Shown here piece after piece: positions 894-11,818 of a stretch of DNA of 32,000 nt (the stretch's first letter is position 1; each line of letters begins with the position of its first letter). The notes below the pieces were generated by a model that had not been told where the DNA came from, made no database searches, and was given only the letters and a program-made list of their open reading frames with translations. A program made the position numbers and the translations under genes. The DNA is taken from positions 840,001 through 872,000 of the forward strand of contig NC_014033.1 in the NCBI RefSeq assembly GCF_000025925.1. Reading direction: 5' to 3'. Source of the stretch: Xylanibacter ruminicola 23. Lineage in GTDB: Bacteria > Bacteroidota > Bacteroidia > Bacteroidales > Bacteroidaceae.

Positions 894-2954
894 ATGTACC
901 AACATATGTCATTACTTAAAAAAACTTTTCAGTTTTCATGGATAGGCCTAGTAGCAACCGTGATGCTTCTCTCATCGTGTGACAATGCTCAGCAGAGTCA
1001 TGATTTGGAATTCGATCGTGTGCATAACATCATGCGATATTCTGATTCCATCCCTCGTACCGTCGATAGTTTGATGGCGCTGGGTGAAATCAATCAGATG
1101 TGTGCCGACTTTTATAATATGTCGTATTACATGAGCCCGAATGTAAATCGTTCCAGTGCGATTGCTGATAGCGCCTTGATGCGTCCTGTCGTCACAGAAC
1201 AGGATCGCTTCTATCACTTCCTGATAGCAGCCAATAACTCAGAGCTGGAATACACGAGTCGCCACTACGAGTCGGGCTTGCGAAAGGCTCAGCAGTTGGT
1301 CAACAGTGTTGATACCAGTTTTATCAATCGCCACTATCTGCTGCAAACGGGCTATCTGTTGGCCTATAGCAATCTGGCACTTAGCTATATCCATCTGGAA
1401 CGTTCAGCCGAGGGTGAAAAGTACATGCAGCAGGTGATGAAGCTGATTGATCAGTTTGAAAAAACGTCTGTAAACGACTCTGTTGCACAGCATAATTGGG
1501 CGGCTAAACGTACGCAATTCGCCGTTGCCGCTATGATTTCTTATTGTAATATGCGCCAATGGGATGGGGCAGAGGCCTGGATGAATCGTGCCGAAAAATA
1601 TCTTCAGAATATGGCGGATAATCCTCGTGTCGATAAGTCGCATTACCCCATATTCTGCTATCAGGTTAGTTGTGTCAAATCCTTTATCCTCGAAAAGGCA
1701 GGCCATCATCAGGAGGCTGCTCAGGCCTATGACGATTTTATGAAGAATCCCTTGTCAAAATCAGTGGTTGCTCGTATCAATTCGGTTTCATATCTCAATA
1801 GTAGTCATCGCTATGAGGAGGCCGAGCGTAATATCAATGATGTTGAAACTGTGATGGGACAGTTGGGCATGAAGATGGATCTTGAGACACTTAACGGTAT
1901 TGTTAAGTTAAAGTTCGATGCCCATTTGGGTGCAGGTCATCGCGACTCTGCCCTTGCTGTAGCTACACGCATTCTTGACAGACTCGATTCGGCTGAGGTA
2001 TGGCAGAGACGTGACAAGACAGCCGAGTTGGCTACCATCTATGATATGAGTAAGAAGGATGCCGAGATTGCCGAAAAAGAGGCTAAGATCAACCAGATGC
2101 GCATAGTTGTACTGTTGATAGTGATTGTGCTGCTTTTGGTGTTCTTCTTTATTTATGCCTTCACTCGTCGTCGTGCGGCTGCCAGCCTGAACCAGAAGAA
2201 CGAGCAGCTGTTGATAGCCAATGCCCGTGCCGAGGAAGCATCGCGCATGAAGACCAGGTTTATCCAGCAGATTTCGCACGAGTTCCGTACCCCTCTGAAT
2301 GTGCTTTCGGGTTTTGCTCAGGTGCTCACGGATTCGGATGCCTATCTCGACGAGAGTTTGCGTCAGGATGCCAATCGCCAGATTCTCGAAAATACCAACC
2401 GCATTACCAACCTGGTTAATAAGATGCTGGAGCTGTCGGATGTGAGCAGTCGTACGGTCATCGATCTTACCGATCAGGTTTCAGTTGAACAGATAGCCAC
2501 CGATGCCATCGACGCTTCGGGTATAGACGATGCCGATCATTTAGTGTTCGAGATGCAGGCTGGCGACGAGGCTTCGTCGGTGCGCATCACCACCAATAAG
2601 CGTGCAGCTGTTCGTGCGCTCGCGCTGTTGCTCGATAATGCACGCAAGTTCACGGCACCAGCCGAGGCCTATGGTCATCATGATGCTGCTGATAAGAAAC
2701 AGCGTGCCGTCTTGAAGGTAAGCATTACCGATACGCTTGTGCAGTTCATCGTCGAAGATACAGGTATGGGTGTTCCTGCCAATCAGGCTGAGCGCATCTT
2801 TGATGAGTTTGTGCAGCTCGATGAGTATTATGATGGTACGGGTATCGGACTCACGGTAGCCCGCAGTTTTGCCCGTCGTTTGGGTGGTGATGTGAAGCTC
2901 GACACCACTTATATCGCTGGTGCCCGCTTTGTGATGACGCTTCCAAGAAAATAA
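894..2954 (+). CDS. membrane sensor histidine kinase with large N-terminal TPR-like extracytoplasmic domain; no receiver domain and no adjacent response regulator
   Basis: ORF track 747..2954. I prefer ATG 894 (or 906) because 747-893 overlaps the prfA start and both promoter boxes. Signal/lipobox-like MYQHMSLLKK...VMLLSSCDN; TM segment VVLLIVIVLLLVFFFIYAF; H-box FIQQISHEFRTPLN; N-box LLDNARKF; G1 VEDTGMGV; G2 GTGIGLTVAR. Confidence 0.85.
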   Translation: MYQHMSLLKKTFQFSWIGLVATVMLLSSCDNAQQSHDLEFDRVHNIMRYSDSIPRTVDSLMALGEINQMCADFYNMSYYMSPNVNRSSAIADSALMRPVVTEQDRFYHFLIAANNSELEYTSRHYESGLRKAQQLVNSVDTSFINRHYLLQTGYLLAYSNLALSYIHLERSAEGEKYMQQVMKLIDQFEKTSVNDSVAQHNWAAKRTQFAVAAMISYCNMRQWDGAEAWMNRAEKYLQNMADNPRVDKSHYPIFCYQVSCVKSFILEKAGHHQEAAQAYDDFMKNPLSKSVVARINSVSYLNSSHRYEEAERNINDVETVMGQLGMKMDLETLNGIVKLKFDAHLGAGHRDSALAVATRILDRLDSAEVWQRRDKTAELATIYDMSKKDAEIAEKEAKINQMRIVVLLIVIVLLLVFFFIYAFTRRRAAASLNQKNEQLLIANARAEEASRMKTRFIQQISHEFRTPLNVLSGFAQVLTDSDAYLDESLRQDANRQILENTNRITNLVNKMLELSDVSSRTVIDLTDQVSVEQIATDAIDASGIDDADHLVFEMQAGDEASSVRITTNKRAAVRALALLLDNARKFTAPAEAYGHHDAADKKQRAVLKVSITDTLVQFIVEDTGMGVPANQAERIFDEFVQLDEYYDGTGIGLTVARSFARRLGGDVKLDTTYIAGARFVMTLPRK

Positions 2955-2963
2955 CCAAAAATA

Positions 2964-3003
2964 AAGTGGCAGTGAGAATTACCTCGCTGCCACTTTGTTT
3001 TTC
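2964..3003. terminator. bidirectional intrinsic terminator between the convergent kinase and GG-peptide genes
   Basis: 13-bp stem aagtggcagtgag (2964-2976) / ctcgctgccactt (2983-2995) with one G-U pair and a 6-nt loop. T-runs follow on both strands (tgttttt on plus, tattttt on minus). Confidence 0.7.
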
Positions 3004-3025
3004 TTGCAGTTTTTTACATTCTACT

Positions 3026-3232
3026 TTACTTCTTGTTATTCATCTTATTCTTGATTGCATTAATCAGAGAATTAAGCAGAGATGTAGAAGTATTTGTATC
3101 CTGATTACCATTTGTACCTGTTGTAGTGATCAGTGTAGTGGTAGGTATCAAATTCATAACACCACCAGGTAACAGTATCCATCCGTCACCACCTTTAACA
3201 GCCTTGAGCTGCGCTCTTTCTAATTGTTTCAT
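3026..3232 (-). CDS. double-glycine (GG) leader peptide precursor, 68 aa; predicted 15-aa leader plus 53-aa Cys-free core
   Basis: MKQLERAQLKAVKGG|DGWILLPGGVMNL... Hydrophobic residues at -4 (V), -7 (L), -12 (L) and -15 (M) from the GG fit the bacteriocin-type leader. The gene has its own -7 box and terminator and is divergent from a C39-peptidase ABC exporter. Confidence 0.75.
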   Translation of the reverse strand: MKQLERAQLKAVKGGDGWILLPGGVMNLIPTTTLITTTGTNGNQDTNTSTSLLNSLINAIKNKMNNKK

Positions 3233-3301
3233 AATTGTTGATTTAATTAAATTTGTAATTGTACTTTTGAATTATTTGATAATAGTTTTTTAATTTCTTG
3301 G

Positions 3302-3309
3302 CAAATGTA
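3302..3309 (-). promoter_or_regulatory. -7 promoter box (TACATTTG) for the GG-peptide gene
   Basis: Plus-strand caaatgta equals TACATTTG on the minus strand, ~70 nt upstream of the peptide ATG (3232), in a very AT-rich divergent intergenic region. Confidence 0.5.
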
Positions 3310-3423
3310 AGCAAAATAATTTGGATGACGATAATAATAGCTGTTTTAATTAACATAGTTTAAATAAATATTAACTGAATGTTAACAAACTTGAAGTTAT
3401 TGTTTTATTTGCCATTTTCTTGC

Positions 3424-3431
3424 TAACTTTG
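3424..3431 (+). promoter_or_regulatory. -7 promoter box (TAACTTTG) for the PCAT-HlyD operon
   Basis: TAACTTTG lies 28 nt upstream of ATG 3459. Confidence 0.55.
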
Positions 3432-3458
3432 TGGCCAGATTGCTAAAAAACAAGGTAA

Positions 3459-5675
3459 ATGAATAAACCATTCCCAATATTCACTCAACACGATGTGATG
3501 GAATGTGGCCCAACCTGCTTACGCATGGTGATGGCCTATTATGGGCGCAACTATCCGCTGGAACGGTTGCGCGATATGTGTCATATACAGCGCGATGGCG
3601 TGTCGCTGCTCGGTGTTGCTGAGGCTGCCGAGCAGTTAGGCATGCATACCACAGGCGTGAAAGCTACGCTGCAACAGTTGGTCGACGAGGTTCCACTTCC
3701 GTGTATCCTGCATTGGAATCAGGGGCATTTTGTAGTGCTCTACGAGGTGAAGCGTACCAAAGAGGGGCTACAGTTCAAGGTGGCCGATCCCGTAGGTCAG
3801 CGCATCACCTATACCGAGCGCGAGTTTCTGCGCTACTGGGCTTCGGATACCGAAGAAGGACAGCCCGCTGGTATCGCCCTGATGCTGGAACCAACACCCG
3901 ATTTCAATCGCGACGAGTATGTCGAGGATGATAGCGACCGCAAGGCCCGTAAGCGCAGCCTCATGCTGTTGCTGTCGTATATGCGACCTTATAAGAAGCT
4001 CATCGCGCAGCTGTTCTTAGGGCTCACGGTGGTCTCGCTGCTGCAACTGGTACTGCCGTTCCTCACGCAGGCTATCGTCGATTTCGGTATCTCGCGCCAG
4101 GACCTCGGTTTCATCGTCCTGGTACTTATTGCGCAGCTGATGCTCATGATAGGTAGCACCTCGGTACAGTTCATCCAGAGTTGGATACTGCTTCATGTTT
4201 CTACGCGCGTAAACCTGTCGCTCTTGTCCGACTATCTGGCCAAGCTGATGCGCTTGCCTTTCAGCTATTTCGATACGCGCCTTACAGGTGATATCCTGCA
4301 GCGTATCGACGATCACGACCGTATCCAGACGTTCCTCACGGGTAGCAGCCTATCGCTGATACTCTCGCTGTTCAATATCGTGGTGTTCGGTGCCGTTATC
4401 CTCATTTACGACTGGCGCATCTTCTTTATCTTCATGCTGGGCAGTGCGCTCTATGTGCTCTGGGTACTGCTGTTCATGCGCCGTCGTGCCAAGCTCGATA
4501 CCAAGTTGTTCGCCCAGAACGCGGCCAATCAGAGTAAGATTGTGCAACTTATCGACGGTATTCAGGAGATTAAACTCAACACCTGCGAGCAGCAGAAACG
4601 CTGGGAGTGGGAGCGTGTGCAGGCGCGCATTTTCCGCCTCAATATCAAGAGCCTGGCGCTCAATCAGTATCAGGAATCGGGTGCCACGTTCATCAACGAG
4701 GTGAAGAATCTGGTTATCACGGCGCTGGTGGCCATGCTGGTACTTCGTGGCGATATGACACTCGGTATGATGCTGTCGGTGCAGTATATCATCGGTAGTC
4801 TGAATGGTCCAGTCAATCAACTGGTCGATTTCATCCATCGCTATCAGGATGCCCGCCTCAGTCTGGAGCGTCTGCAGGAGGTGTACGAGAAGGACGACGA
4901 GGTGCAGCCCGATCGCCAGCTTATCAGCCAGGTGAGCGGCGATGGTGATATCCTGATCAAGAATCTTACCTACCGTTACGATAAACTGAACGACAAACCT
5001 ACACTCGACCATATTGATGTGGTGATACCTCACGGCAAGACTACGGCGATTGTCGGACTGAGTGGTAGTGGTAAGACCACGCTGCTCAAGATGATTCTCG
5101 GCTTCTATAAGCCCGATGCCGGCGAGGTGGTGATAGGCTCGTCGGATCTGGAAAACTACGACAAGCGTGCATGGCGCAGGCATTGTGGTGTGGTAATGCA
5201 GGATGGTTTTATCTATTCCGACACCATCGCCCGCAATATCGCTGCCGGTTTCGAGGTGATTGATACCGAGCGACTGGTGCAGGCAGCCCGCGTGGCCGAG
5301 ATCGACGATTATATCCGCCAGTTGCCGCTGGGTTATAACACCAAGATTGGTGCCGAGGGCAGTGGCTTGAGTCAGGGTCAGAAGCAGCGCATCCTGATAG
5401 CCCGTGCCGTGTATAAGAATCCCGACTACGTGTTCTTCGACGAGGCTACCAACTCGCTCGATGCGCAGAACGAGCATGCCATCATCCAGAATCTGGCCGA
5501 CTTCCTGCATAATCGTACATCGCTCATCATTGCCCACCGACTCAGTACGGTGGTTGATGCCGACAATATCCTGGTGATGAGCGAGGGGCGCATTGTCGAG
5601 TCGGGTAATCACGCCCAGCTGTTAGAGCGTCGCGGCATCTATTACGAACTGGTAAAGAACCAACTGAATGTTTAG
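3459..5675 (+). CDS. peptidase-C39-domain ABC transporter (PCAT; GG-leader peptide cleavage/export ATPase-permease)
   Basis: 738 aa. N-terminal C39 motifs: Q10, MECGPTCL (catalytic Cys16 context), WNQGHFVVL (His), VADP (Asp). Six-TM ABC membrane domain. Walker A GLSGSGKTT, signature LSQGQKQR, Walker B VFFDEATNSLD, H-loop IIAHRLS. Confidence 0.92.
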   Translation: MNKPFPIFTQHDVMECGPTCLRMVMAYYGRNYPLERLRDMCHIQRDGVSLLGVAEAAEQLGMHTTGVKATLQQLVDEVPLPCILHWNQGHFVVLYEVKRTKEGLQFKVADPVGQRITYTEREFLRYWASDTEEGQPAGIALMLEPTPDFNRDEYVEDDSDRKARKRSLMLLLSYMRPYKKLIAQLFLGLTVVSLLQLVLPFLTQAIVDFGISRQDLGFIVLVLIAQLMLMIGSTSVQFIQSWILLHVSTRVNLSLLSDYLAKLMRLPFSYFDTRLTGDILQRIDDHDRIQTFLTGSSLSLILSLFNIVVFGAVILIYDWRIFFIFMLGSALYVLWVLLFMRRRAKLDTKLFAQNAANQSKIVQLIDGIQEIKLNTCEQQKRWEWERVQARIFRLNIKSLALNQYQESGATFINEVKNLVITALVAMLVLRGDMTLGMMLSVQYIIGSLNGPVNQLVDFIHRYQDARLSLERLQEVYEKDDEVQPDRQLISQVSGDGDILIKNLTYRYDKLNDKPTLDHIDVVIPHGKTTAIVGLSGSGKTTLLKMILGFYKPDAGEVVIGSSDLENYDKRAWRRHCGVVMQDGFIYSDTIARNIAAGFEVIDTERLVQAARVAEIDDYIRQLPLGYNTKIGAEGSGLSQGQKQRILIARAVYKNPDYVFFDEATNSLDAQNEHAIIQNLADFLHNRTSLIIAHRLSTVVDADNILVMSEGRIVESGNHAQLLERRGIYYELVKNQLNV

Positions 5676-5681
5676 CAGAAA

Positions 5682-6968
5682 ATGATGGAAGAAGATAGAA
5701 TCGAACTACATAGCGACGAGGTACAGGACATCATCTCGCGTCCGCCATCGTCGTTGATAAAATATGGTATTACAGTCATTGCCGCTGTGGTGGCGCTGGT
5801 TGTCATTGGCAGTTTTATTTTCCGTTATCCCGATGTGGTGCAGGGTAGGGTGGTAGTCACGGGCGATACCCCTCCCAATCGTATTGTGGCCCGTGCCGAT
5901 GGTCGTTTGCAGGAGCTTCGCCTGGCCGATGGTCAGCAGGTGTCAAAAGGCGCCATCATCGCTGTGGTCGAGAATACCGCCAATACCGATGATGTGGTAA
6001 GTGTGAAACAGGCCGTCGGTAAGCTGTCGGTTAGTGGCGAGCCCATCCCCTTCGCTGCCGATCAGTCGTTGCGCCTGGGTGTGGTGCAGGATGCCTATAA
6101 TCAGTTCTGCGATGCCGTCGTCAGTTACAATCAGGCCGTTCGCCTCAATATCTATCGCCAGCAGATACTGTCGGCACAGAAGGAGCATGCCTCGTTGTTG
6201 CGCCACGAAAGTAATCTCAAACGTCAGCTCGAAATGAGCCAGCAGCAAGCCGATCTGGTCAAGCACGATCGCGATCGCGAAAAAAGCCTGCACGAACGCA
6301 AGCTCACTTCCGATGCTGAAATGGAGCAGAGTCAGCGCTCGTTGATCTCGGCCCAGCTCTCCGTCGAGCAGGTACGTACCGACATCTCGCAAACCCAACT
6401 CAGCATTGCCCAGATAGATAATCGTCTGGCCGAGCTTCAGGTGCAGTACCAGCAGGATATGCAGCATGTTACGGCCACGCTGCAGTCGGCGCTCAACACC
6501 CTCAAGGTGGCCATCGGTCAGTGGGAGCATCTCTATGCCCTTGTGGCCCCAGCATCCGGCAAACTGTCGTACACCAATGTGTGGGCGGTCAATCAGAATA
6601 TCACTACAGGTCAGCATATCTTCTCCGTTGTCGAGTCGCGCAAATCATGCTTTGTGGGTAAGGTTCTTCTGCCAGCCACAGGCTTCGGTAAGGTCAAGGA
6701 GGGCCAGCGTGTAAACATCATGCTCGATGGCTATCCCTATCTCGAGTTCGGCTATCTGCGTGGCACGGTAAGCGGTCTTTCAGCAGTCGCCAATCAGGAT
6801 GTGTATGTGGCCACCATCACACTGCCACAGGGCCTGCATACCACCGTTGGACGTGAACTACGGTTCACTGGCGAGTTGAGTGGCCAGGCCGAGGTCATCA
6901 CCGAGGATATCAGCCTTGCCGTCCGCATCATCCAACCCCTGCGGTACATCTTCCATCACAACGTATAA
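5682..6968 (+). CDS. HlyD-family periplasmic adaptor / secretion protein partnered with the PCAT
   Basis: 428 aa, starting 6 nt after the PCAT stop. Single N-terminal TM (YGITVIAAVVALVVIGSFIF), a lipoyl-like hairpin segment, a long coiled-coil region (QQILSAQKEH...LAELQVQYQQ) and a C-terminal beta-barrel-like part. This is the typical order for bacteriocin ABC accessory proteins. Confidence 0.85.
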   Translation: MMEEDRIELHSDEVQDIISRPPSSLIKYGITVIAAVVALVVIGSFIFRYPDVVQGRVVVTGDTPPNRIVARADGRLQELRLADGQQVSKGAIIAVVENTANTDDVVSVKQAVGKLSVSGEPIPFAADQSLRLGVVQDAYNQFCDAVVSYNQAVRLNIYRQQILSAQKEHASLLRHESNLKRQLEMSQQQADLVKHDRDREKSLHERKLTSDAEMEQSQRSLISAQLSVEQVRTDISQTQLSIAQIDNRLAELQVQYQQDMQHVTATLQSALNTLKVAIGQWEHLYALVAPASGKLSYTNVWAVNQNITTGQHIFSVVESRKSCFVGKVLLPATGFGKVKEGQRVNIMLDGYPYLEFGYLRGTVSGLSAVANQDVYVATITLPQGLHTTVGRELRFTGELSGQAEVITEDISLAVRIIQPLRYIFHHNV

Positions 6969-6975
6969 AACGAAA

Positions 6976-7016
6976 AACAGAGGGTGCCCAGTTGGACATC
7001 CTCTGTTTCTTTTGTT
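6976..7016 (+). terminator. intrinsic terminator of the PCAT-HlyD operon
   Basis: Stem aacagagggtg (6976-6986) / catcctctgtt (6997-7007) with a 10-nt loop, followed by tcttttgtt. Confidence 0.7.
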
Positions 7017-7116
7017 AATACCCCATACACGAGGTGGCTCCCAATGCCGTCACTATCGCCGTCGCGATCGATGCTATCATCTGCACGATAAACTTAAATG
7101 TTTCTTTCTTTGTCAT
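7015..7116 (-). CDS. 33-aa small membrane/lipoprotein-like peptide downstream of the HU-like gene (resembles the Bacteroidales 'smalltalk protein' class)
   Basis: Hand-translated and below the ORF-track size cutoff: MTKKETFKFIVQMIASIATAIVTALGATSCMGY. The ATG lies 17 nt after the HU-like stop. The basic N-terminus, hydrophobic helix and C-terminal ..SC.. are, as I recall, typical of small ORFs paired with HU-like genes in Bacteroides. Not verified. Confidence 0.5.
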   Translation of the reverse strand: MTKKETFKFIVQMIASIATAIVTALGATSCMGY

Positions 7117-7136
7117 AATTTAATGTTTAATGTTTA
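7117..7136 (-). repeat. short tandem heptamer repeat (TAAACAT on the gene-sense strand) at the HU-like stop / small-ORF start junction
   Basis: Sense (minus) strand reads GAT TAA ACA TTA AAC ATT AAA TT ATG. This is the same heptamer family as at 14500-14527 and 17311-17373. Confidence 0.7.
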
Positions 7137-7688
7137 ATCTCCGATTGGCTCATTGCTGTGACCGCCGCCTCCGGTATTACCACCAGTGTTTCCACCGGTA
7201 TTACCGCCCTGGCTGCTACCACCACCGCCACTGTTACTTGGTTTATCCTCCTCCTCGGTCAGCTGTCCAGCAAATGTCTCTGCATTCACAAACTCCGCCT
7301 TCTTGATAAACTCTCTGCTCGAGATGTTGGTCTCAGCCTCCTGGTCGGGTAGGAACCTAATGTGCAGGGCCTTCAGGTTCTTGGCTGGCGAGAAATCCTC
7401 CTTCTTCAGGGCTCCACCTTTCTCGTTCTCGATGGTGGTGAAGAAGATGCCCAGACCGTCGATCTTTACTCGTTTCGAGTTCAGGAGCATTTCCAGCAGA
7501 CAGCTTCTGAATTTCTCCAGCACTCCGAATACCACGTCTGGGGTGTAGATGCTTCCGTGTTCCGAGATGTGGTTGGCCATCTTGCGGGTGTTCAGTGTTT
7601 CGATGGTTTTTCCGTGGGCAAACCACTTACCGTAAATCTTCGAGTTCTTGATGTTGTTCTGCTTCAACAGATAAAAAATCTTTGCCAT
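7134..7688 (-). CDS. Bacteroidetes HU-like (HU_HIG-type) DNA-binding protein with Gly/Asn/Thr-rich repetitive C-terminal tail
   Basis: 184 aa. MAKIFYLLKQNNIKNSKIYGKWFAH...MANHISEHGSIYTPDVVFGVLEKF...KIDGLGIF is typical of the Bacteroides 'putative DNA-binding protein, histone-like' family. The tail SGGGGSSQGGNTGGNTGGNTGGGGH is encoded by 12-nt repeats at ~7160-7215. Confidence 0.8.
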   Translation of the reverse strand: MAKIFYLLKQNNIKNSKIYGKWFAHGKTIETLNTRKMANHISEHGSIYTPDVVFGVLEKFRSCLLEMLLNSKRVKIDGLGIFFTTIENEKGGALKKEDFSPAKNLKALHIRFLPDQEAETNISSREFIKKAEFVNAETFAGQLTEEEDKPSNSGGGGSSQGGNTGGNTGGNTGGGGHSNEPIGD

Positions 7689-7780
7689 AATGTTGTGTGT
7701 TTTAATTTTAAAATGGTTAATAACTAAGTGTTGTTTGTGTCTCTCAAAAGTTTTGCGCGCTTTGTTTTTGATTAACGATG

Positions 7781-7788
7781 CAAAGGTA
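7781..7788 (-). promoter_or_regulatory. -7 promoter box (TACCTTTG) for the HU-like gene
   Basis: Plus-strand caaaggta equals TACCTTTG on the minus strand, ~90 nt upstream of ATG 7688. Confidence 0.5.
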
Positions 7789-7876
7789 CAAAAAATATTT
7801 CAAACTACCAAATATTTTAGCCACTTTTTTATCAAAAAGCAAAAATATTTTGGTTATCCATTTCGTACGCCAAGAA

Positions 7877-7905
7877 CCGTAATTTTTTCGCCTCAAAAAT
7901 TACGG
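7877..7905. repeat. perfect 11-bp stem hairpin (ccgtaattttt / aaaaattacgg) with 7-nt loop
   Basis: Read directly: 7877-7887 is the reverse complement of 7895-7905. It lies in non-coding DNA at the left edge of the AT-rich island. Confidence 0.8.
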
Positions 7906-7948
7906 ATTTCGCTCAAATAAGTATAACCTCGTCTGCTATGCTCACCTC

Positions 7949-8145
7949 CACACCGCACGCCGCACGCCGCAACTTTTCCGTACTTCACACTCGCAGCATT
8001 TTGTCTTTAGAATATTATATATTATTATATATATTATAATATATATAATAATATATAATATTTATAATACTAATTAATCCACATCCACCATCGCACCCCT
8101 CCACACCGCAAAACCAAAAAGTTGCGGCGTGCGGCGTGCGGTGTG
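7949..8145. repeat. 197-bp element: perfect 29-bp GC-rich terminal inverted repeats enclosing a perfect 52-bp pure-A/T palindrome
   Basis: 7949-7977 cacaccgcacgccgcacgccgcaactttt is the exact reverse complement of 8117-8145. 8011-8062 is a perfect palindrome of A/T only, checked base by base, with its centre at 8036/8037. An extra 13-bp direct copy cctccacaccgca occurs at 7945-7957 and 8098-8110. Confidence 0.9.
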
Positions 8146-8162
8146 ATGCTATCACCACTACA

Positions 8163-8213
8163 TGCATTTTAGCGGAGTTTAGAGGCTCGTTTTTTGCATT
8201 TTAGCGGAGTTTA
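8163..8213. repeat. 19-bp direct repeat x2 (tgcattttagcggagttta), 32-bp period
   Basis: Copies at 8163-8181 and 8195-8213 are identical, and the region is non-coding. Confidence 0.85.
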
Positions 8214-8404
8214 CAAGCCTAAGCCAAAAACAAATGTTAGGTTTATTCGTATTAAAAAACAATTGATTAATACCATAGACGAAAAGTTCTCCAAAGGCTT
8301 AGATAGTAGCTGGTGATTGGCTACCCAAAAGCAACCAGAAAGAATGTGGCTCTGGCCTTAGGCGGTATCAGTAGGATCGGTTCTCTTTATCAGAAATAGG
8401 CGAG

Positions 8405-8477
8405 TATTCCCTCATAAAATTGGCAAGAAGTGGTAGTTATTCCCTCATAAAATTGTCGCGACAGTGGCGCGACAATT
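8405..8477. repeat. 18-bp direct repeat x2 (tattccctcataaaattg, 33-bp period) running into a 10-bp-stem hairpin
   Basis: Copies at 8405-8422 and 8438-8455. The hairpin is aattgtcgcg (8451-8460) / cgcgacaatt (8468-8477) with a 7-nt loop. Confidence 0.85.
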
Positions 8478-8617
8478 ACAAGAAGAATTCGGCCGGAAAG
8501 GATTTGATGAGAAAAGTATCCTTTGAGGACAAGGAATTAAACGAGACAGTGGTTGTTCGGAAATTCCGAACTACCACTCAACATGGAGCTATAGAGGGGA
8601 AAACTGTACTACCCTAG
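8420..8617 (+). pseudogene. remnant of a RhuM/Fic-associated N-terminal-domain type gene (only ~35 recognisable codons)
   Basis: The ORF tail ...VSFEDKELNETVVVRKFRTTTQHGAIEGKTVLP* resembles the conserved ..IFEEGEL.E.SVVRKFRTTAADGK.Y.. block of RhuM-family proteins (from memory). The rest of that ~330-aa family is missing, and the 5' part of the ORF is made of the direct repeats. Confidence 0.4.
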
Positions 8618-8741
8618 AAAAAGTTGAATGGATTTTACCTTACCCCTGCCAAAAGCTGAATCATTCTCTCTAAACCCTTGTTTTTTGTTGAAAGACGATT
8701 ATTTTTATTCTTAGTTTTTTCTTTATTTCACTTATTTGGTG

Positions 8742-8749
8742 TATCTTTG
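8742..8749 (+). promoter_or_regulatory. -7 promoter box (TATCTTTG) upstream of the metallophosphoesterase gene
   Basis: TATCTTTG lies inside the 5' end of track ORF 8678..9559, 25 nt upstream of the in-frame GTG at 8774. Confidence 0.45.
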
Positions 8750-8773
8750 CATGCAATAATACAAATAAAAATA

Positions 8774-9559
8774 GTGAACAGAAACTGCAATATAGTAGAA
8801 TACCCTCGCGCCAAGAAAATCGTAGTTAGTGGCGATATTCATGGTGATTTTACTCAGCTCGTATTTAAGTGCTGCGTACAGTATGAAATGACCGATACAC
8901 TTATCATTGTAGCTGGTGATTGTGGATTCGGTTTTGAAAGGCCCGGCTATTATGAGGCTGTTTACAATCGTTGTCGCGACCGGCTTTCAAAATCCAATAA
9001 CTGGATAGTTTTTATAAGAGGAAATCATGATAATCCAGCTTATTTTAATAGACTACCAATCAAACACCAACGCTGGCGTACGTTATGTGATTATTCGGTA
9101 ATTAAGGCTTGTGGTCATACGATTCTTTGTGTAGGTGGTGCAACATCCATCGACAGAACTCTTCGTATGGCTTCTAATAAATTTCATTTGCCCAATCCAA
9201 ATGATCCTCTTTTGCCAAATGTTTATTGGTCAAATGAACTCCCTGAATTTAACAAGGAGAAGCTTAATAAAATTGATCAGCAATGCGCTGTCGATACCAT
9301 AATTACCCATACTTCACCATCGTTCTGTGAATTATCATCACACCATTTCTTGGAAAGCTGGGCTGAGCATGATGTAGATTTGTTGGACGACGTAAGGTAT
9401 GAGCGCCAGGTGATGGACGATATCTATAGTTATCTTTATAGCAAGAATCATCCTTTAAGATATTGGTATTACGGACATTTCCATGAGAGCTGGCATGCCG
9501 AAATAGATCAGGTAAGATACCACATGCTCGATATAATGGAGTTAAGAGAGATTCTTTAA
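8774..9559 (+). CDS. calcineurin-like metallophosphoesterase (stand-alone, ~262 aa from GTG 8774; the open frame extends to TTG 8678)
   Basis: Complete MPE motif set in order: VVSGDIHGDF, VAGDCGFG, IRGNHDNP, VGGATSIDR, ITHTSP, YYGHFH. The start is uncertain. There is no in-frame ATG before the first motif, and the F/L-rich 8678-8773 stretch may be T-rich promoter DNA or a signal peptide. Confidence 0.8.
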   Translation: MNRNCNIVEYPRAKKIVVSGDIHGDFTQLVFKCCVQYEMTDTLIIVAGDCGFGFERPGYYEAVYNRCRDRLSKSNNWIVFIRGNHDNPAYFNRLPIKHQRWRTLCDYSVIKACGHTILCVGGATSIDRTLRMASNKFHLPNPNDPLLPNVYWSNELPEFNKEKLNKIDQQCAVDTIITHTSPSFCELSSHHFLESWAEHDVDLLDDVRYERQVMDDIYSYLYSKNHPLRYWYYGHFHESWHAEIDQVRYHMLDIMELREIL

Positions 9560-9609
9560 GAAATATGAGTTTTTTCTAGCTAATTATTTGTTACATCGCT
9601 TTTTATTTG

Positions 9610-9617
9610 TATCTTTG
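9610..9617 (+). promoter_or_regulatory. -7 promoter box (TATCTTTG) for the 204-aa PD-(D/E)xK-signature gene
   Basis: TTTGTATCTTTGCA context, 21 nt upstream of ATG 9638. It is nearly identical to the box before the preceding gene. Confidence 0.5.
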
Positions 9618-9637
9618 CAATTGTAAATGAATCAACT

Positions 9638-10252
9638 ATGTCTGAAGAGAATTTAACGGAAGGTTATTCTATATTAGAGGAGACTTGCATGTTGGTATGC
9701 GAGCCTCCATATCAAAATCTTGATACGTTATTGGAAGATTTGCCCAATTTTAGTGGAGCTGGTTTTTATACTCAACTACGACGCATTGCTGAACATCCAG
9801 CATTCGAACCAGTTGAGAATGAAGAGAAGATCTTTAGCGCTGCGGGTGATACATGTGATGACTATCAGAATTTGATTAATGCAGCAAGGAAAGCTGTTGA
9901 GCATGGTTATCGTGTTTTTATATTGCCAAATCCAAAGAGGTTTAGAACGCCTGACTTTATTTTTGAACGCAAGGGTGTATATAAACTGTTTGATTTAAAA
10001 ACCATTTCGGGATCGAACTCGGTTGATAATCGTTTAAAAGAATCTGTTGGTCAAACTAACCGTGTGTTGCTTCATATGGTTTCTAATTATGAACCTCGTC
10101 CATTGGCTAAGAGTATAAAGCATTACTTCGAACTGAATCCTGAAGCAATAGAGGTTCTTGTAATAAAAGGAAAGAAATTTATCTCTATTGTTCGCAAAGA
10201 CACATTAGGCGAATCATATATCAAATACTTTATGGTGAAATATACAAAATAA
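9638..10252 (+). CDS. hypothetical 204-aa protein: acidic N-terminal half plus C-terminal PD-(D/E)xK (restriction-endonuclease-fold) signature
   Basis: HGYRVFILPNPKRFRTP(105)D(106)FIFERKGVYKLFD(119)LK(121)TISGS...GQTNRVLLHM gives PD-x12-DxK spacing. It has its own promoter box and a strong terminator immediately after the stop. Any family assignment (small REase-fold toxin / CdiA-CT-tRNase-like) is from memory only. Confidence 0.75.
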   Translation: MSEENLTEGYSILEETCMLVCEPPYQNLDTLLEDLPNFSGAGFYTQLRRIAEHPAFEPVENEEKIFSAAGDTCDDYQNLINAARKAVEHGYRVFILPNPKRFRTPDFIFERKGVYKLFDLKTISGSNSVDNRLKESVGQTNRVLLHMVSNYEPRPLAKSIKHYFELNPEAIEVLVIKGKKFISIVRKDTLGESYIKYFMVKYTK

Positions 10253-10277
10253 AAAACCACCCCGGAAGGTGGTTTTT
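10252..10277. terminator. bidirectional intrinsic terminator (aaaaaccacc-ccggaa-ggtggttttt)
   Basis: Perfect 10-bp stem 10252-10261 / 10268-10277 with a 6-nt loop, and an A-run and T-run on either side so it can terminate both strands. It overlaps the stop codon of the 204-aa gene. Confidence 0.8.
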
Positions 10278-10347
10278 AAATGGGCAGTATCGATAAAGCC
10301 TTGCCCCTCGCGGGATTCTACCCGGATAGCCAAAACAGATGTTCTGA
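10253..10347 (-). ncRNA. candidate ~95-nt small RNA (orphan promoter-to-terminator unit with no ORF)
   Basis: A minus-strand TATCTTTG box (10353-10360) is followed ~75 nt later by the terminator hairpin and T-run. The interval has local stems (cccGCGAggg with a GNRA loop; gggca...tgccc) and a tRNA-3'-end-like string gggtagaatcccgcgaggggca, but no cloverleaf and no plausible CDS. Confidence 0.25.
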
Positions 10348-10352
10348 CGGTG

Positions 10353-10360
10353 CAAAGATA
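10353..10360 (-). promoter_or_regulatory. -7 promoter box (TATCTTTG) on the minus strand with no downstream gene
   Basis: Plus-strand caaagata equals TATCTTTG on the minus strand, facing the terminator at 10252-10277. Confidence 0.45.
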
Positions 10361-10435
10361 AAAACATTTTCAATAAGTTCCAAATATTTTGGGATTTTTT
10401 TTTTAGTAGAAGTGATTTTATATAAGAAATCTTTG

Positions 10436-10443
10436 TATATTTG
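10436..10443 (+). promoter_or_regulatory. -7 promoter box (TATATTTG) before decayed coding remnants
   Basis: TATATTTG lies 21 nt upstream of ATG 10464, which opens only a 17-codon ORF (MKIEQIYEVIAKEGFPL*). Confidence 0.4.
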
Positions 10444-10463
10444 CACCCAAAAGAACTATCAAA

Positions 10464-11057
10464 ATGAAAATAGAGCAGATATACGAGGTTATTGCCAAGG
10501 AGGGCTTTCCGCTCTAACATTGCAAACTATTGATAACTGTATAAAGGAGATACAAGATGGGACAGAAGATTTTCCTAGATTTAATCTATCAGAGCATGCA
10601 GGACTCTGCACAGCAGGTGCGCCGCTCATTGGGGCGTCCATCATCGCGAGCTACGCGACAGCAAGCATTACGTCAAGTAGCCATGCTGAAGGCTGCGAAG
10701 GAAGCCCAGCAAACTGGCAAATAGATGAGTGCTAAGAAAAACTGATTGAACAATGGGCCAGGGCTGCCAATCTGTGGGAGGATGACTCTGAACAGATTCT
10801 TGTCGCCATGGGTAAAGTATACTGCTGATGCCGAAGTGATTGCTGAGTCAAAAAGAAGAGATTTCACAGGTATGTATGCACTCTATGATGGTTGTATCAT
10901 AATAAACGAAGATTGGTGGGAATATATCCAGGAACACTTTGATGAATTATGCGTTTTTGCCACGCAGTCGTTCTTTGACTACGTCAAACAATACAATGAC
11001 GCTATGAAACTCCTGAGATTTAGAACAACAGGGTTTAGTTTTATTGGAAAACTATAG
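10464..11057 (+). pseudogene. multi-frame coding remnants of an unidentified gene (frameshifted / stop-interrupted)
   Basis: Protein-like stretches occur in three frames. MKIEQIYEVIAKEGFPL* (10464-). MGQKIFLDLIYQSMQDSAQQVRRSLGRPSSRATRQQALRQVAMLKAAKEAQQTGK* (10557-10724). ..EKLIEQWARAANLWEDDSEQILVAMGKVYC*. Then ..YTADAEVIAESKRRDFTGMYALYDGCIIINEDWWEYIQEHFDELCVFATQSFFDYVKQYNDAMKLLRF.. up to 11057. I recognise no family. Confidence 0.3.
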
Positions 11058-11065
11058 AATAATAA

Positions 11066-11566
11066 GGCCATTCATCAAAGCCGCGTAATCGCAATATTGC
11101 TAATGCATTCTTCAAGGCTGGTTTTATCGATACTTGGGGACGTGGTTTCCAAAAAATTCAAGACGGATTTGAACCAGCAGGAATTCCTATGCCTAAGGTT
11201 GAGAATTTCTGCGGAGGAGTGAGGGTAACAATACAGCGAACCAAGTTCATGCAGATGATGAATGTCACTAGTGATGTCACTAGTAATGTCGTAAGTGATG
11301 TCACTAGTAATGTCGTAAGTGATGTCAGTAGTTCTGTCGGTAGTTTGTCGGTAGTGCAACTTACTGATAGACAGAAGAAAATACGCGAATTGATACTGAA
11401 GGATTCTTTTATTTCAGCACAGCAAATGTCAGTAGTTCTGTCAGTAGTTACACGAACTATATGGCGTGATCTTGCAGACTTGCAAAAGAAGGGGGTTTTG
11501 ATTCGTGAGGGCAACACAAGTGCTGGTCATTGGCTTTGGGTTGGTCCTATAGTAGATAATAAATAA
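11066..11566 (+). pseudogene. 5'-truncated C-terminal fragment of an AlbA_2/HATPase_c_4-type ('RecG-like') putative transcriptional regulator
   Basis: The frame is open from the stop at 11063-11065 and has no start. ..KPRNRNIANAFFKAGFIDTWGRGFQKIQDGFEPAGIPMPKVENFCGGVRVTIQR.. matches the conserved ..RN..IA.AF...G.IE.WG.GI..I......G.P.P.F....G.F.V.. block. It is followed by a low-complexity repeat and a wHTH-like tail (LTDRQKKIRELILKD..ISAQQMS....VTRTIWRDLADLQKKGVLIREG). The N-terminal ~300 aa of such proteins are missing. Confidence 0.6.
11273..11338 (+). repeat. 24-bp tandem coding repeat (gatgtcactagtaatgtcgtaagt x2 plus partial copies) inside the regulator fragment
   Basis: 11273-11296 and 11297-11320 are identical and encode DVTSNVVS, with degenerate copies on both sides. 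The same repeat explains the repetitive antisense ORFs 11075..11359 and 11158..11517. Confidence 0.85.
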
Positions 11567-11591
11567 GTAAAAGGCAATTAAAGAATAGCTT

Positions 11592-11779
11592 ATGTCAAAA
11601 TTTAACGAACACAGCTTGGAAATGACCATCATAGAGCTGTTCTGCTGGATTACGCGGTTGAGAGCGGTCAGGACTTTGACGAGCTACTGATTGAGAAGAA
11701 TCGCTATGGTGCCATGTGGCTGCACTTTGCGGTAAGGCCGAAAGATAATCGGCACAAAATACTATTTATTAATGCATAA
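11592..11779 (+). pseudogene. possible remnant of a type I restriction enzyme R-subunit (HsdR) gene: N-terminal ~17 codons fused out of frame to a short unrelated/C-terminal piece
   Basis: ATG 11592 gives MSKFNEHSLEMTIIELF.., which resembles the ..FNE.SLE.AIIELF.. N-terminus of many HsdR proteins (from memory). The frame then collapses with a stop at 11688-11690. A second frame reads LLDYAVESGQDFDELLIEKNRYGAMWLHFAVRPKDNRHKILFINA* up to 11779. Confidence 0.35.
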
Positions 11780-11784
11780 AAAAA

Positions 11785-11818
11785 CAGCGGAGGGCATTGT
11801 GCTCTCCGCTGCGTTTTT
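11785..11818. terminator. bidirectional intrinsic terminator at the island / purM boundary
   Basis: Stem cagcggagggc (11785-11795) / gctctccgctg (11801-11811) with one G-U pair and a 5-nt loop. It is flanked by an A7 run upstream and cgttttta downstream, and it lies 17 nt past the purM stop on the minus strand. Confidence 0.75.

Follow-up and report, generated by a model that had tools for sequence, protein, structure and literature searches.

A stretch of 32,000 nucleotides from the chromosome of Xylanibacter (Prevotella) ruminicola 23 (contig NC_014033.1, positions 840,001 to 872,000; hereafter the window) carries a small prepeptide gene that stands divergent from the genes for a peptidase-containing ABC transporter (PCAT) and a HlyD-type periplasmic adaptor. 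By those of its features that can be read from the sequence, this module is a double-glycine (GG) leader/PCAT/HlyD export system. With confidence about evenly balanced, we read it as a chromosomal export module for a ribosomally made peptide that occurs only in the X. ruminicola group of the rumen. The export machinery itself is textbook, and what is new is the orphan family to which the peptide core belongs. Prevotella and Xylanibacter count among the rumen's most abundant bacteria, and to our knowledge the competition and communication of their strains are almost unstudied; our literature searches turned up nothing about this locus or about signalling by peptides in Prevotella. The locus offers a concrete secreted-peptide system with many natural alleles, since two clusters at 90% identity hold 92 and 84 distinct sequences, at least 176 in all. 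Acyl-homoserine lactone signals went undetected in P. ruminicola 23 cultures (PMC10838665), and a survey of rumen isolates for bacteriocins reported few Bacteroidota clusters (PMC13289728).

The prepeptide gene lies on the minus strand (3232..3026) and encodes 68 amino acids (aa), with the leader MKQLERAQLKAVKGG at 3232..3188, the predicted 53-aa core DGWILLPGGVMNLIPTTTLITTTGTNGNQDTNTSTSLLNSLINAIKNKMNNKK (DGW...NNKK) joined to it at 3187..3029, and the stop codon at 3028..3026. Counted back from the GG, the leader presents V at -4, L at -7, L at -12 and M at -15, which places it among the GG leaders. When a strict 15-aa leader pattern was applied to the 300 ATG-initiated open reading frames (ORFs) of 30-120 aa in the window, a single one matched, and none did in 30 shuffles. 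The 68-aa product is identical to WP_041385630.1, a hypothetical protein of X. ruminicola. Its relatives form about 30 clusters at 76-97% identity, or about 40 when more divergent alleles are added, and all of these approximately 40 clusters come from rumen-type sources and the X. ruminicola group, none of them bearing a name. The 15-aa leader is invariant over the approximately 30 clusters, and the comparison of alleles gave more synonymous than nonsynonymous changes in its codons. Alleles differ by in-frame indels of 10 and 5 codons that preserve the reading frame, and in the syntenic loci the small ORF is conserved as a coding sequence, always in the same slot. Judged by this pattern of conservation, it is a real coding gene. 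For the core, the ratio of nonsynonymous to synonymous rates (dN/dS) was 0.35-0.8, and two close alleles were separated by eight nonsynonymous changes and one synonymous change. By these substitution patterns, purifying selection acts on the leader and the core evolves rapidly.

The PCAT gene (3459..5675, plus strand) starts 226 bp from the peptide gene. Its 738-aa product consists of a C39 domain (approximately residues 6-128), a six-helix transmembrane (TM) domain and a nucleotide-binding domain, matched in Pfam by Peptidase_C39 (PF03412, E 8.5e-31), ABC_membrane and ABC_tran, and it aligns over its full length with PCAT1 (4ry2) and ComA (8hf4). Based on the alignment of Q10, C16, H90 and D110 to the catalytic residues of PCAT1 (4ry2/7n87) and LahT150 (6mpz), the catalytic Cys/His/Asp triad and the oxyanion Gln of the C39 peptidase are intact. 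The HlyD-type gene (5682..6968, plus strand) encodes a periplasmic adaptor, or membrane fusion protein, of 428 aa with HlyD_3 and TIGR01843 matches. It begins 6 nt past the PCAT stop codon, and because of this short gap the two genes are probably co-transcribed. The original prediction had described the GG-leader ORF with its spacing, the divergent PCAT at that distance, the HlyD-type gene close behind it and an active-looking C39 domain, and all of these were confirmed in the sequence, which supports a GG-peptide export module with a catalytically intact peptidase.

From these parts, a course of events can be proposed. The 68-aa precursor would be transcribed from its own TAnnTTTG promoter, and its amphipathic 15-aa leader helix would dock in the C39 domain and be cut after Gly15. 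The 53-aa core would then be translocated by the ABC dimer and handed, via the HlyD-type adaptor, to an unlinked outer-membrane channel, the exported product being most likely linear and unmodified. We infer the docking, cleavage and export because they follow established PCAT biology (PCAT1, ComA and LahT structures; PMC6959990, PMC8794836), and the proposed absence of modification and the biological role are read in the same conditional sense.

The predicted core has a mass of 5,644 Da and an isoelectric point of 9.5, and contains no Cys. Its alleles fall into classes of 68 aa (DGWIL.. and EGWLD.. types), 58 aa, 62/63 aa and 65 aa, and every class begins with a moderately hydrophobic head of approximately 25 residues that includes the pattern [W/F]-hydrophobic-(P)GG-[IV][LM]N[LF]. 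In all classes the head is followed by a low-complexity middle, 43-51% of which is Thr, Asn, Ser or Gln, and by a Lys-rich tail, and the net charge ranges from +2 to +6. The amphipathic segment LLNSLINAI is dispensable to the peptide family, since the 58- and 62/63-aa classes lack it. Between allele classes, divergence peaks over the peptide gene and its promoter side at 17-29% of nucleotides, compared with 1-10% in the transporter. A metagenome scan for further alleles yielded five loci only.

When homologs of the core were sought, an exhaustive HMMER search of 1.84 billion representative proteins found none outside the X. ruminicola group. A word-indexed search of 5.8 billion proteins, performed with the single sequence and with a profile, returned only the X. 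ruminicola-group family, and the large-scale searches also gave two spurious low-complexity matches. A Pfam search of the peptide gave no match. As far as these searches reach, the core is an orphan family limited to the rumen X. ruminicola group. The single curated-family match of the leader was a weak, sub-threshold one to the EntF GG induction-factor leader in NCBIfam. The thr operon leader was considered as the peptide's family and rejected, the NCBIfam match being sub-threshold and an artefact of composition. The N-x-S/T sequons and the D-x-N-x-S motif in the core were also set aside, as they occur at chance level for such a composition, are unconserved among alleles and have no linked glycosyltransferase.

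Each arm of the module has its own Bacteroidetes-type -7 box. For the peptide gene, TACATTTG (3309..3302, minus strand) stands approximately 70 nt 5' of the ATG, and for the PCAT-HlyD operon, TAACTTTG (3424..3431, plus strand) stands 28 nt 5' of the ATG. Both fit TAnnTTTG, which occurs 36 times in the window against 17.9 expected, and both were kept in an alignment of six otherwise diverged intergenic regions. Based on folding energy, a bidirectional terminator-like hairpin (2957..3002, both strands) separates the peptide gene from a convergent histidine kinase gene, at -29.7 kcal/mol on the plus strand (z -8.0) and -24.9 kcal/mol on the minus strand (z -5.2). A second one (6969..7016, both strands) follows the HlyD-type gene and also closes the convergent smalltalk/HU pair, at -23.1 kcal/mol on the plus strand (z -4.7) and -22.2 kcal/mol on the minus strand (z -3.7). 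A simple terminator scan missed the former hairpin and called only the inner 5-bp core of the latter (6985-6998). The boxes on both arms and the bracketing hairpins had been part of the original prediction, and both were recovered here, the hairpins by folding of both strands in each case. As for regulator-binding repeats in the divergent promoter, the candidates were AT-rich repeats at chance level only and were rejected. No known RNA element or tRNA was found in the window.

We then compared the module with related loci, cited below by number (L001 and so on). Among the GTDB species representatives, the same module was present in one genome, an X. ruminicola metagenome-assembled genome (L007) whose PCAT is 97% identical, and the next-best PCATs, at 54-65% identity, belong to Bacteroides, Prevotella, Paludibacter, Dysgonomonas, Pedobacter and others. 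At 80 related Bacteroidota PCAT loci, a HlyD-type gene follows the PCAT in nearly all cases and GG peptides are encoded nearby. The GG-leader ORFs around these PCATs are very diverse, many being Cys-rich and several short and Cys-free. In this survey, PCAT/HlyD machinery beside GG peptides appears as a common Bacteroidota theme.

In the rumen group, the leader MK[QK]LExxQ[LM]NAVK[GA]G heads at least five unrelated core classes, all of them orphans, and the window contains a single ORF with this leader. At L099 (7148-9245) and L101 (1130-2987), the HlyD-type gene is followed by a gene of the Ntn-hydrolase family (CBAH/AAT; 354 aa, membrane-anchored) and then by five to six peptide genes with the same leader, the cores of which are short, cationic and unrelated (VGKRxxAHGxIYxVKxP; KVKTGAKK...KPTTKK; AGKKTTVT...APIEDGASC). 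At L102 (93-4345), where the PCAT and HlyD proteins are 84% and 78% identical to those of the module, the divergent slot holds two to three different GG peptides, one of which is MKKLEKKQMNAVKGG joined to DWLDDIAKIGPIKIIPDVIK. Because the L099/L101 arrays and the L102 cores share the leader, it can be read as the transporter's address label, and the substrate slot as cassette-like. In light of these loci, the original description of the module as self-contained was too strong, considering the five to six extra same-leader peptides, the L102 cores and a constant kinase neighbour. In the synteny comparison that the original prediction had proposed, the module appears to be kept throughout the species group, and other cores occupy the same slot in the L102 module. 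Likewise, the core is indeed Cys-free, but it is not unusual in this respect, since Cys-free cores adjoin related PCATs, for example in Paludibacter.

Two further kinds of GG-peptide locus were seen in this comparison. In Paludibacter, L061:2472-7507 (and also L035, L041, L054, L064, L078 and L079) carries a complete quorum-sensing-like cassette, in which genes for an OmpR-type response regulator and a two-TM histidine kinase (approximately 446-449 aa) are divergent from one to three tandem GG-leader genes. These encode 17-aa Cys-free cores, such as YYVIITLPDGSKVRVRV, and next to them comes a PCAT with 57-58% identity to that of the module; no curated family matched the 17-mer peptides above threshold. 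In Bacteroides (L015, L018-L021, L024, L027, L031 and L060), a distinct GG-peptide family lies approximately 1.4-3.1 kb upstream of the PCAT, with the leader MKNLSSFEAFKLNKVQM.A[VI].GG and cores of approximately 41-51 aa that usually have two Cys. It weakly resembles TIGR04149 and is apparently unnamed.

As for the function of the exported peptide, we tentatively favour, at slightly less than even confidence, a strain- or species-discriminating antagonistic peptide in the manner of a class II microcin or a bacteroidetocin. Antagonism is favoured because of the microcin and bacteroidetocin precedent, the cationic and hydrophobic core, the deep allele lineages and the multi-peptide arrays of sister strains. 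With class II microcin and bacteriocin export (MccV with CvaAB and TolC), the module shares the GG leader with hydrophobic residues at -4, -7, -12 and -15, the intact C39 triad, a HlyD-family adaptor that appears co-transcribed and a ribosomal peptide below 10 kDa with no linked maturase. Unlike the known microcins and bacteriocins, it belongs to rumen Bacteroidota, and its core has no sequence similarity to any of them. With the bacteroidetocins (class IIf), it shares the phylum, a 15-aa GG leader, a nearby PCAT and a small, cationic and hydrophobic peptide. Bacteroidetocins have a 42-aa core with four Cys and disulfides (Coyne et al. 2019, PMC6671954), and their loci, which are on mobile elements, comprise genes for the toxin, a membrane protein, a thiol oxidoreductase and a PCAT, with no HlyD shown (PMC6671954). 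In contrast, our core lacks Cys, and the module is chromosomal, has a HlyD-type gene, has no oxidoreductase or membrane-protein gene, and lies in DNA of backbone guanine-plus-cytosine (GC) content. Neither profile nor exhaustive search revealed similarity of the core to bacteroidetocins A-D, and no curated family matched it, in agreement with the earlier view that it does not resemble the disulfide-containing GG-bacteriocins. If the peptide is antagonistic, it would widen the Bacteroidota bacteriocins to more than the disulfide-bonded bacteroidetocins, and it might serve to manipulate the rumen at strain level.

Several observations weigh against this picture, some of them against antagonism in particular. 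Class II microcins and most class II bacteriocins have an adjacent immunity gene for a small inner-membrane protein (PMC12219008), whereas no immunity-like small membrane protein is encoded at 2954-7016 or in the sister loci. The module lies in backbone-GC DNA beside core genes with no evident mobile element, and it is apparently fixed in the species group rather than strain-variable. No outer-membrane factor is encoded in the window; one may be encoded elsewhere, by analogy with tolC for MccV. The AlphaFold model of the precursor, with a mean predicted local distance difference test (pLDDT) score of 55, is of low confidence and usable only as a rough secondary-structure sketch, in which the leader is helical and is followed by three short strands, a disordered middle and a helix at the C terminus. 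In the literature searched, we found no transcript, processed-peptide or activity data for the locus, and one supplementary file of an RNA-seq paper (PMC5552732) yielded no X. ruminicola 23 expression data. The original prediction had noted that no modification, immunity or outer-membrane factor gene lies in the unit, and this holds for the entire window, in which no modification enzyme, immunity-like membrane protein or response regulator could be annotated.

The constant neighbour of the module is an orphan sensor histidine kinase of 682 aa (906..2954, plus strand), with a lipoprotein-like signal peptide, a TPR-like solenoid of approximately 400 aa, one TM helix, and HisKA and HATPase domains. 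The ORF as mechanically called starts at TTG 747. Because all orthologs are 682 aa long, the start is most likely ATG 906 (MSLLKK..., with a lipoprotein-like LLSSC), and the 53 codons upstream of it (747-905) are probably untranslated. The sensor was modeled as an all-helical TPR solenoid with a pLDDT of 87. When its structural matches were inspected, they were generic TPR proteins (MalT domain III, LGN, Rap and NprR) at E ~1e-3, so that a particular likeness to peptide receptors was rejected. Whenever the identity of the kinase reaches 82% or more, its gene adjoins those for the peptide, the PCAT and the HlyD-type protein. No PCAT/peptide module was found near the kinase homologs at 42-50% identity (four loci) or at a paralog in L100 (142-2217) whose sensor is 83% identical and fused to SpoIIE, and the sensor was present at 0 of 79 more distant PCAT loci. 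These three results rule out a four-gene cassette including the kinase beyond the species group; the kinase is possibly part of the export system as judged by its position. The TPR-like sensor with its TM helix (906-2105) recurs as a swappable unit with kinase, SpoIIE (PP2C) phosphatase or AraC-type helix-turn-helix outputs, and at L091 the AraC-type fusions stand as tandem copies beside clostripain-family peptidases.

This neighbour suggests another reading, in which the peptide would serve as an autoinducer and the kinase would sense it in the periplasm through its TPR-like domain, with the response regulator encoded elsewhere and allelic peptide/sensor pairs defining pherotypes, as for ComC/ComD and BlpC/BlpH of Gram-positive bacteria. 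We consider this rather unlikely, and a ligand-receptor pair of peptide and kinase, with alleles co-diversifying across rumen strains, is unlikely as well. The constant adjacency of the closely related kinases speaks for signalling, as does the absence of an immunity gene. In order of amino-acid divergence, the parts of the locus rank as peptide core, kinase sensor, kinase catalytic half, HlyD and PCAT. When one locus was taken for each of six allele types, a small sample, the distance between sensors tracked that between peptide cores best (r = 0.91, exact Mantel p = 0.007), whereas the kinase catalytic half, which lies between sensor and peptide, gave r = 0.58 and HlyD gave r = 0.43; a separate calculation produced comparable values. 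Between L001 and L097, the divergence is old in the sensor (13% aa distance, dS 0.30) and likewise in the peptide (52%), but young in the catalytic half, in PCAT and in HlyD. However, PCAT distance also correlates with that of the core (r = 0.78), and where loci have identical peptides, their sensors nevertheless differ by approximately 5%. The dN/dS of the sensor is 0.2-0.34, compared with 0.03-0.11 for PCAT, which fits relaxed constraint, and no averaged signal above 1 was seen. Considering these distances, a link between kinase and peptide is suggestive, and two fast-evolving regions in a small sample would explain them equally well.

Known GG-pheromone circuits (ComC/ComAB/ComDE, BlpC/BlpAB/BlpHR and PlnA) resemble the locus in having a PCAT-type exporter, a kinase gene beside the peptide gene, highly polymorphic peptide alleles and a kinase sensor half that diverges in step with them, and the only family match of the leader is to an induction factor. 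Nevertheless, the kinase here is of the HisKA type and has a periplasmic TPR solenoid in place of a multi-pass HPK10 sensor, no response regulator of the LytTR or another type is encoded within the 32 kb, and the kinase gene belongs to a separate unit that converges on the peptide gene with a strong terminator between them. The host is Gram-negative with a HlyD-type adaptor, and at 43-53 aa the mature peptide would be a long one by the standards of pheromones. TPR solenoid peptide receptors are otherwise cytoplasmic and found in Firmicutes (Rap and NprR). The solenoid is confidently predicted and its weak matches include the peptide-binding LGN, Rap and NprR, but all are generic; the distant kinase homologs and the SpoIIE paralog have no PCAT or peptide gene nearby, the exchangeable outputs point to a general-purpose sensor, and synteny within a single species group is weak evidence for a functional link. 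The related Paludibacter PCATs in their response regulator, kinase and tandem short GG-peptide cassettes lend the signalling reading some support. They resemble the module in PCAT identity, in Cys-free cores, in a hydrophobic strand with a P-[DGN]-G turn and in a kinase beside the peptide genes, and differ from it in that their kinase has a small periplasmic loop and comes with a response regulator, in that their peptides are tandem 17-mers, and in the lack of any sequence similarity to the core or the TPR kinase. Should the TPR kinase read the peptide as a signal, the locus would provide a rare example of quorum sensing by peptide in a Gram-negative phylum.

Two other roles appear improbable, the second more so. 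The peptide might act outside the cell or at the envelope, neither antagonizing nor signalling, as a cationic peptide that interacts with a surface, matrix, polysaccharide or host or is released only into the periplasm. The low-complexity middle and polylysine tail would suit electrostatic binding to anionic surfaces, and the missing immunity gene, the missing dedicated outer-membrane factor and the fixation of the module in the species group are consistent with such a role. It was not found for PCAT substrates in the literature searched, however, and hypervariability with deep allele lineages better fits conflict or recognition than a structural role. Very improbable in our view is a precursor of a peptide made by ribosomes and then modified post-translationally (RiPP), on which an unlinked maturase would act, for example by glycosylation, dehydration or radical-SAM chemistry, before the leader is cut off and the product exported. 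In its favour, the core is rich in Thr, Asn, Ser and Gln, radical-SAM-modified GG-leader families exist in Bacteroidota (TIGR04149) with some neighbouring Bacteroides peptides matching the model weakly, and the Ntn-hydrolase-family gene stands beside the extra peptide arrays of L099 and L101. Yet that hydrolase, specific to L099 and L101, is the only candidate enzyme, as no modification enzyme is encoded in the unit, the window or the sister loci, and no radical-SAM gene is in the window. The peptide matched neither TIGR04149 nor any other RiPP precursor model even at E up to 10. The lack of Cys, and of acidic residues in some alleles, argues against lanthipeptide and graspetide chemistry, and the positions of the core vary too much to hold a fixed modification motif. 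The original claim of an unmodified peptide was drawn from the lack of a linked enzyme.

The locus is also a mosaic. Between L097 and L098 no difference is seen over the kinase, the peptide gene and the intergenic region, nor again over HlyD, while most of the PCAT gene (window-equivalent 3450-5250) differs by 3-8%. Across this stretch L098 differs from the PCAT allele of the window by only 0.7-2.7%. As read from these alignments, recombination has occurred inside the PCAT gene.

In its genomic setting, the module, the PCAT and HlyD-type genes of which have the backbone GC content of approximately 53%, is flanked by prfB and the kinase gene on one side and by a low-GC island (7.6-11.8 kb) and housekeeping genes on the other. 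The island (7600-11800) has 35-42% GC and lies between the module and purM. Its genes include one (8678-9559) for a calcineurin-like phosphoesterase, one (9638-10252) for a protein of 204 aa with a CdiA_C-like toxin domain (Pfam E 2.4e-6) and one (11189-11566) for a small DeoR-like helix-turn-helix protein with a VTSDVTSN repeat. Immediately beyond the HlyD-type gene, a 33-aa smalltalk protein (7116..7015, minus strand; NF033879, E 2e-14) is encoded directly 3' of an HU-HIG family gene (7688..7134, minus strand), the product of which has a Gly/Asn-rich tail. This smalltalk/HU-HIG pair borders the variable side of the module in L001, L007, L098 and L099.

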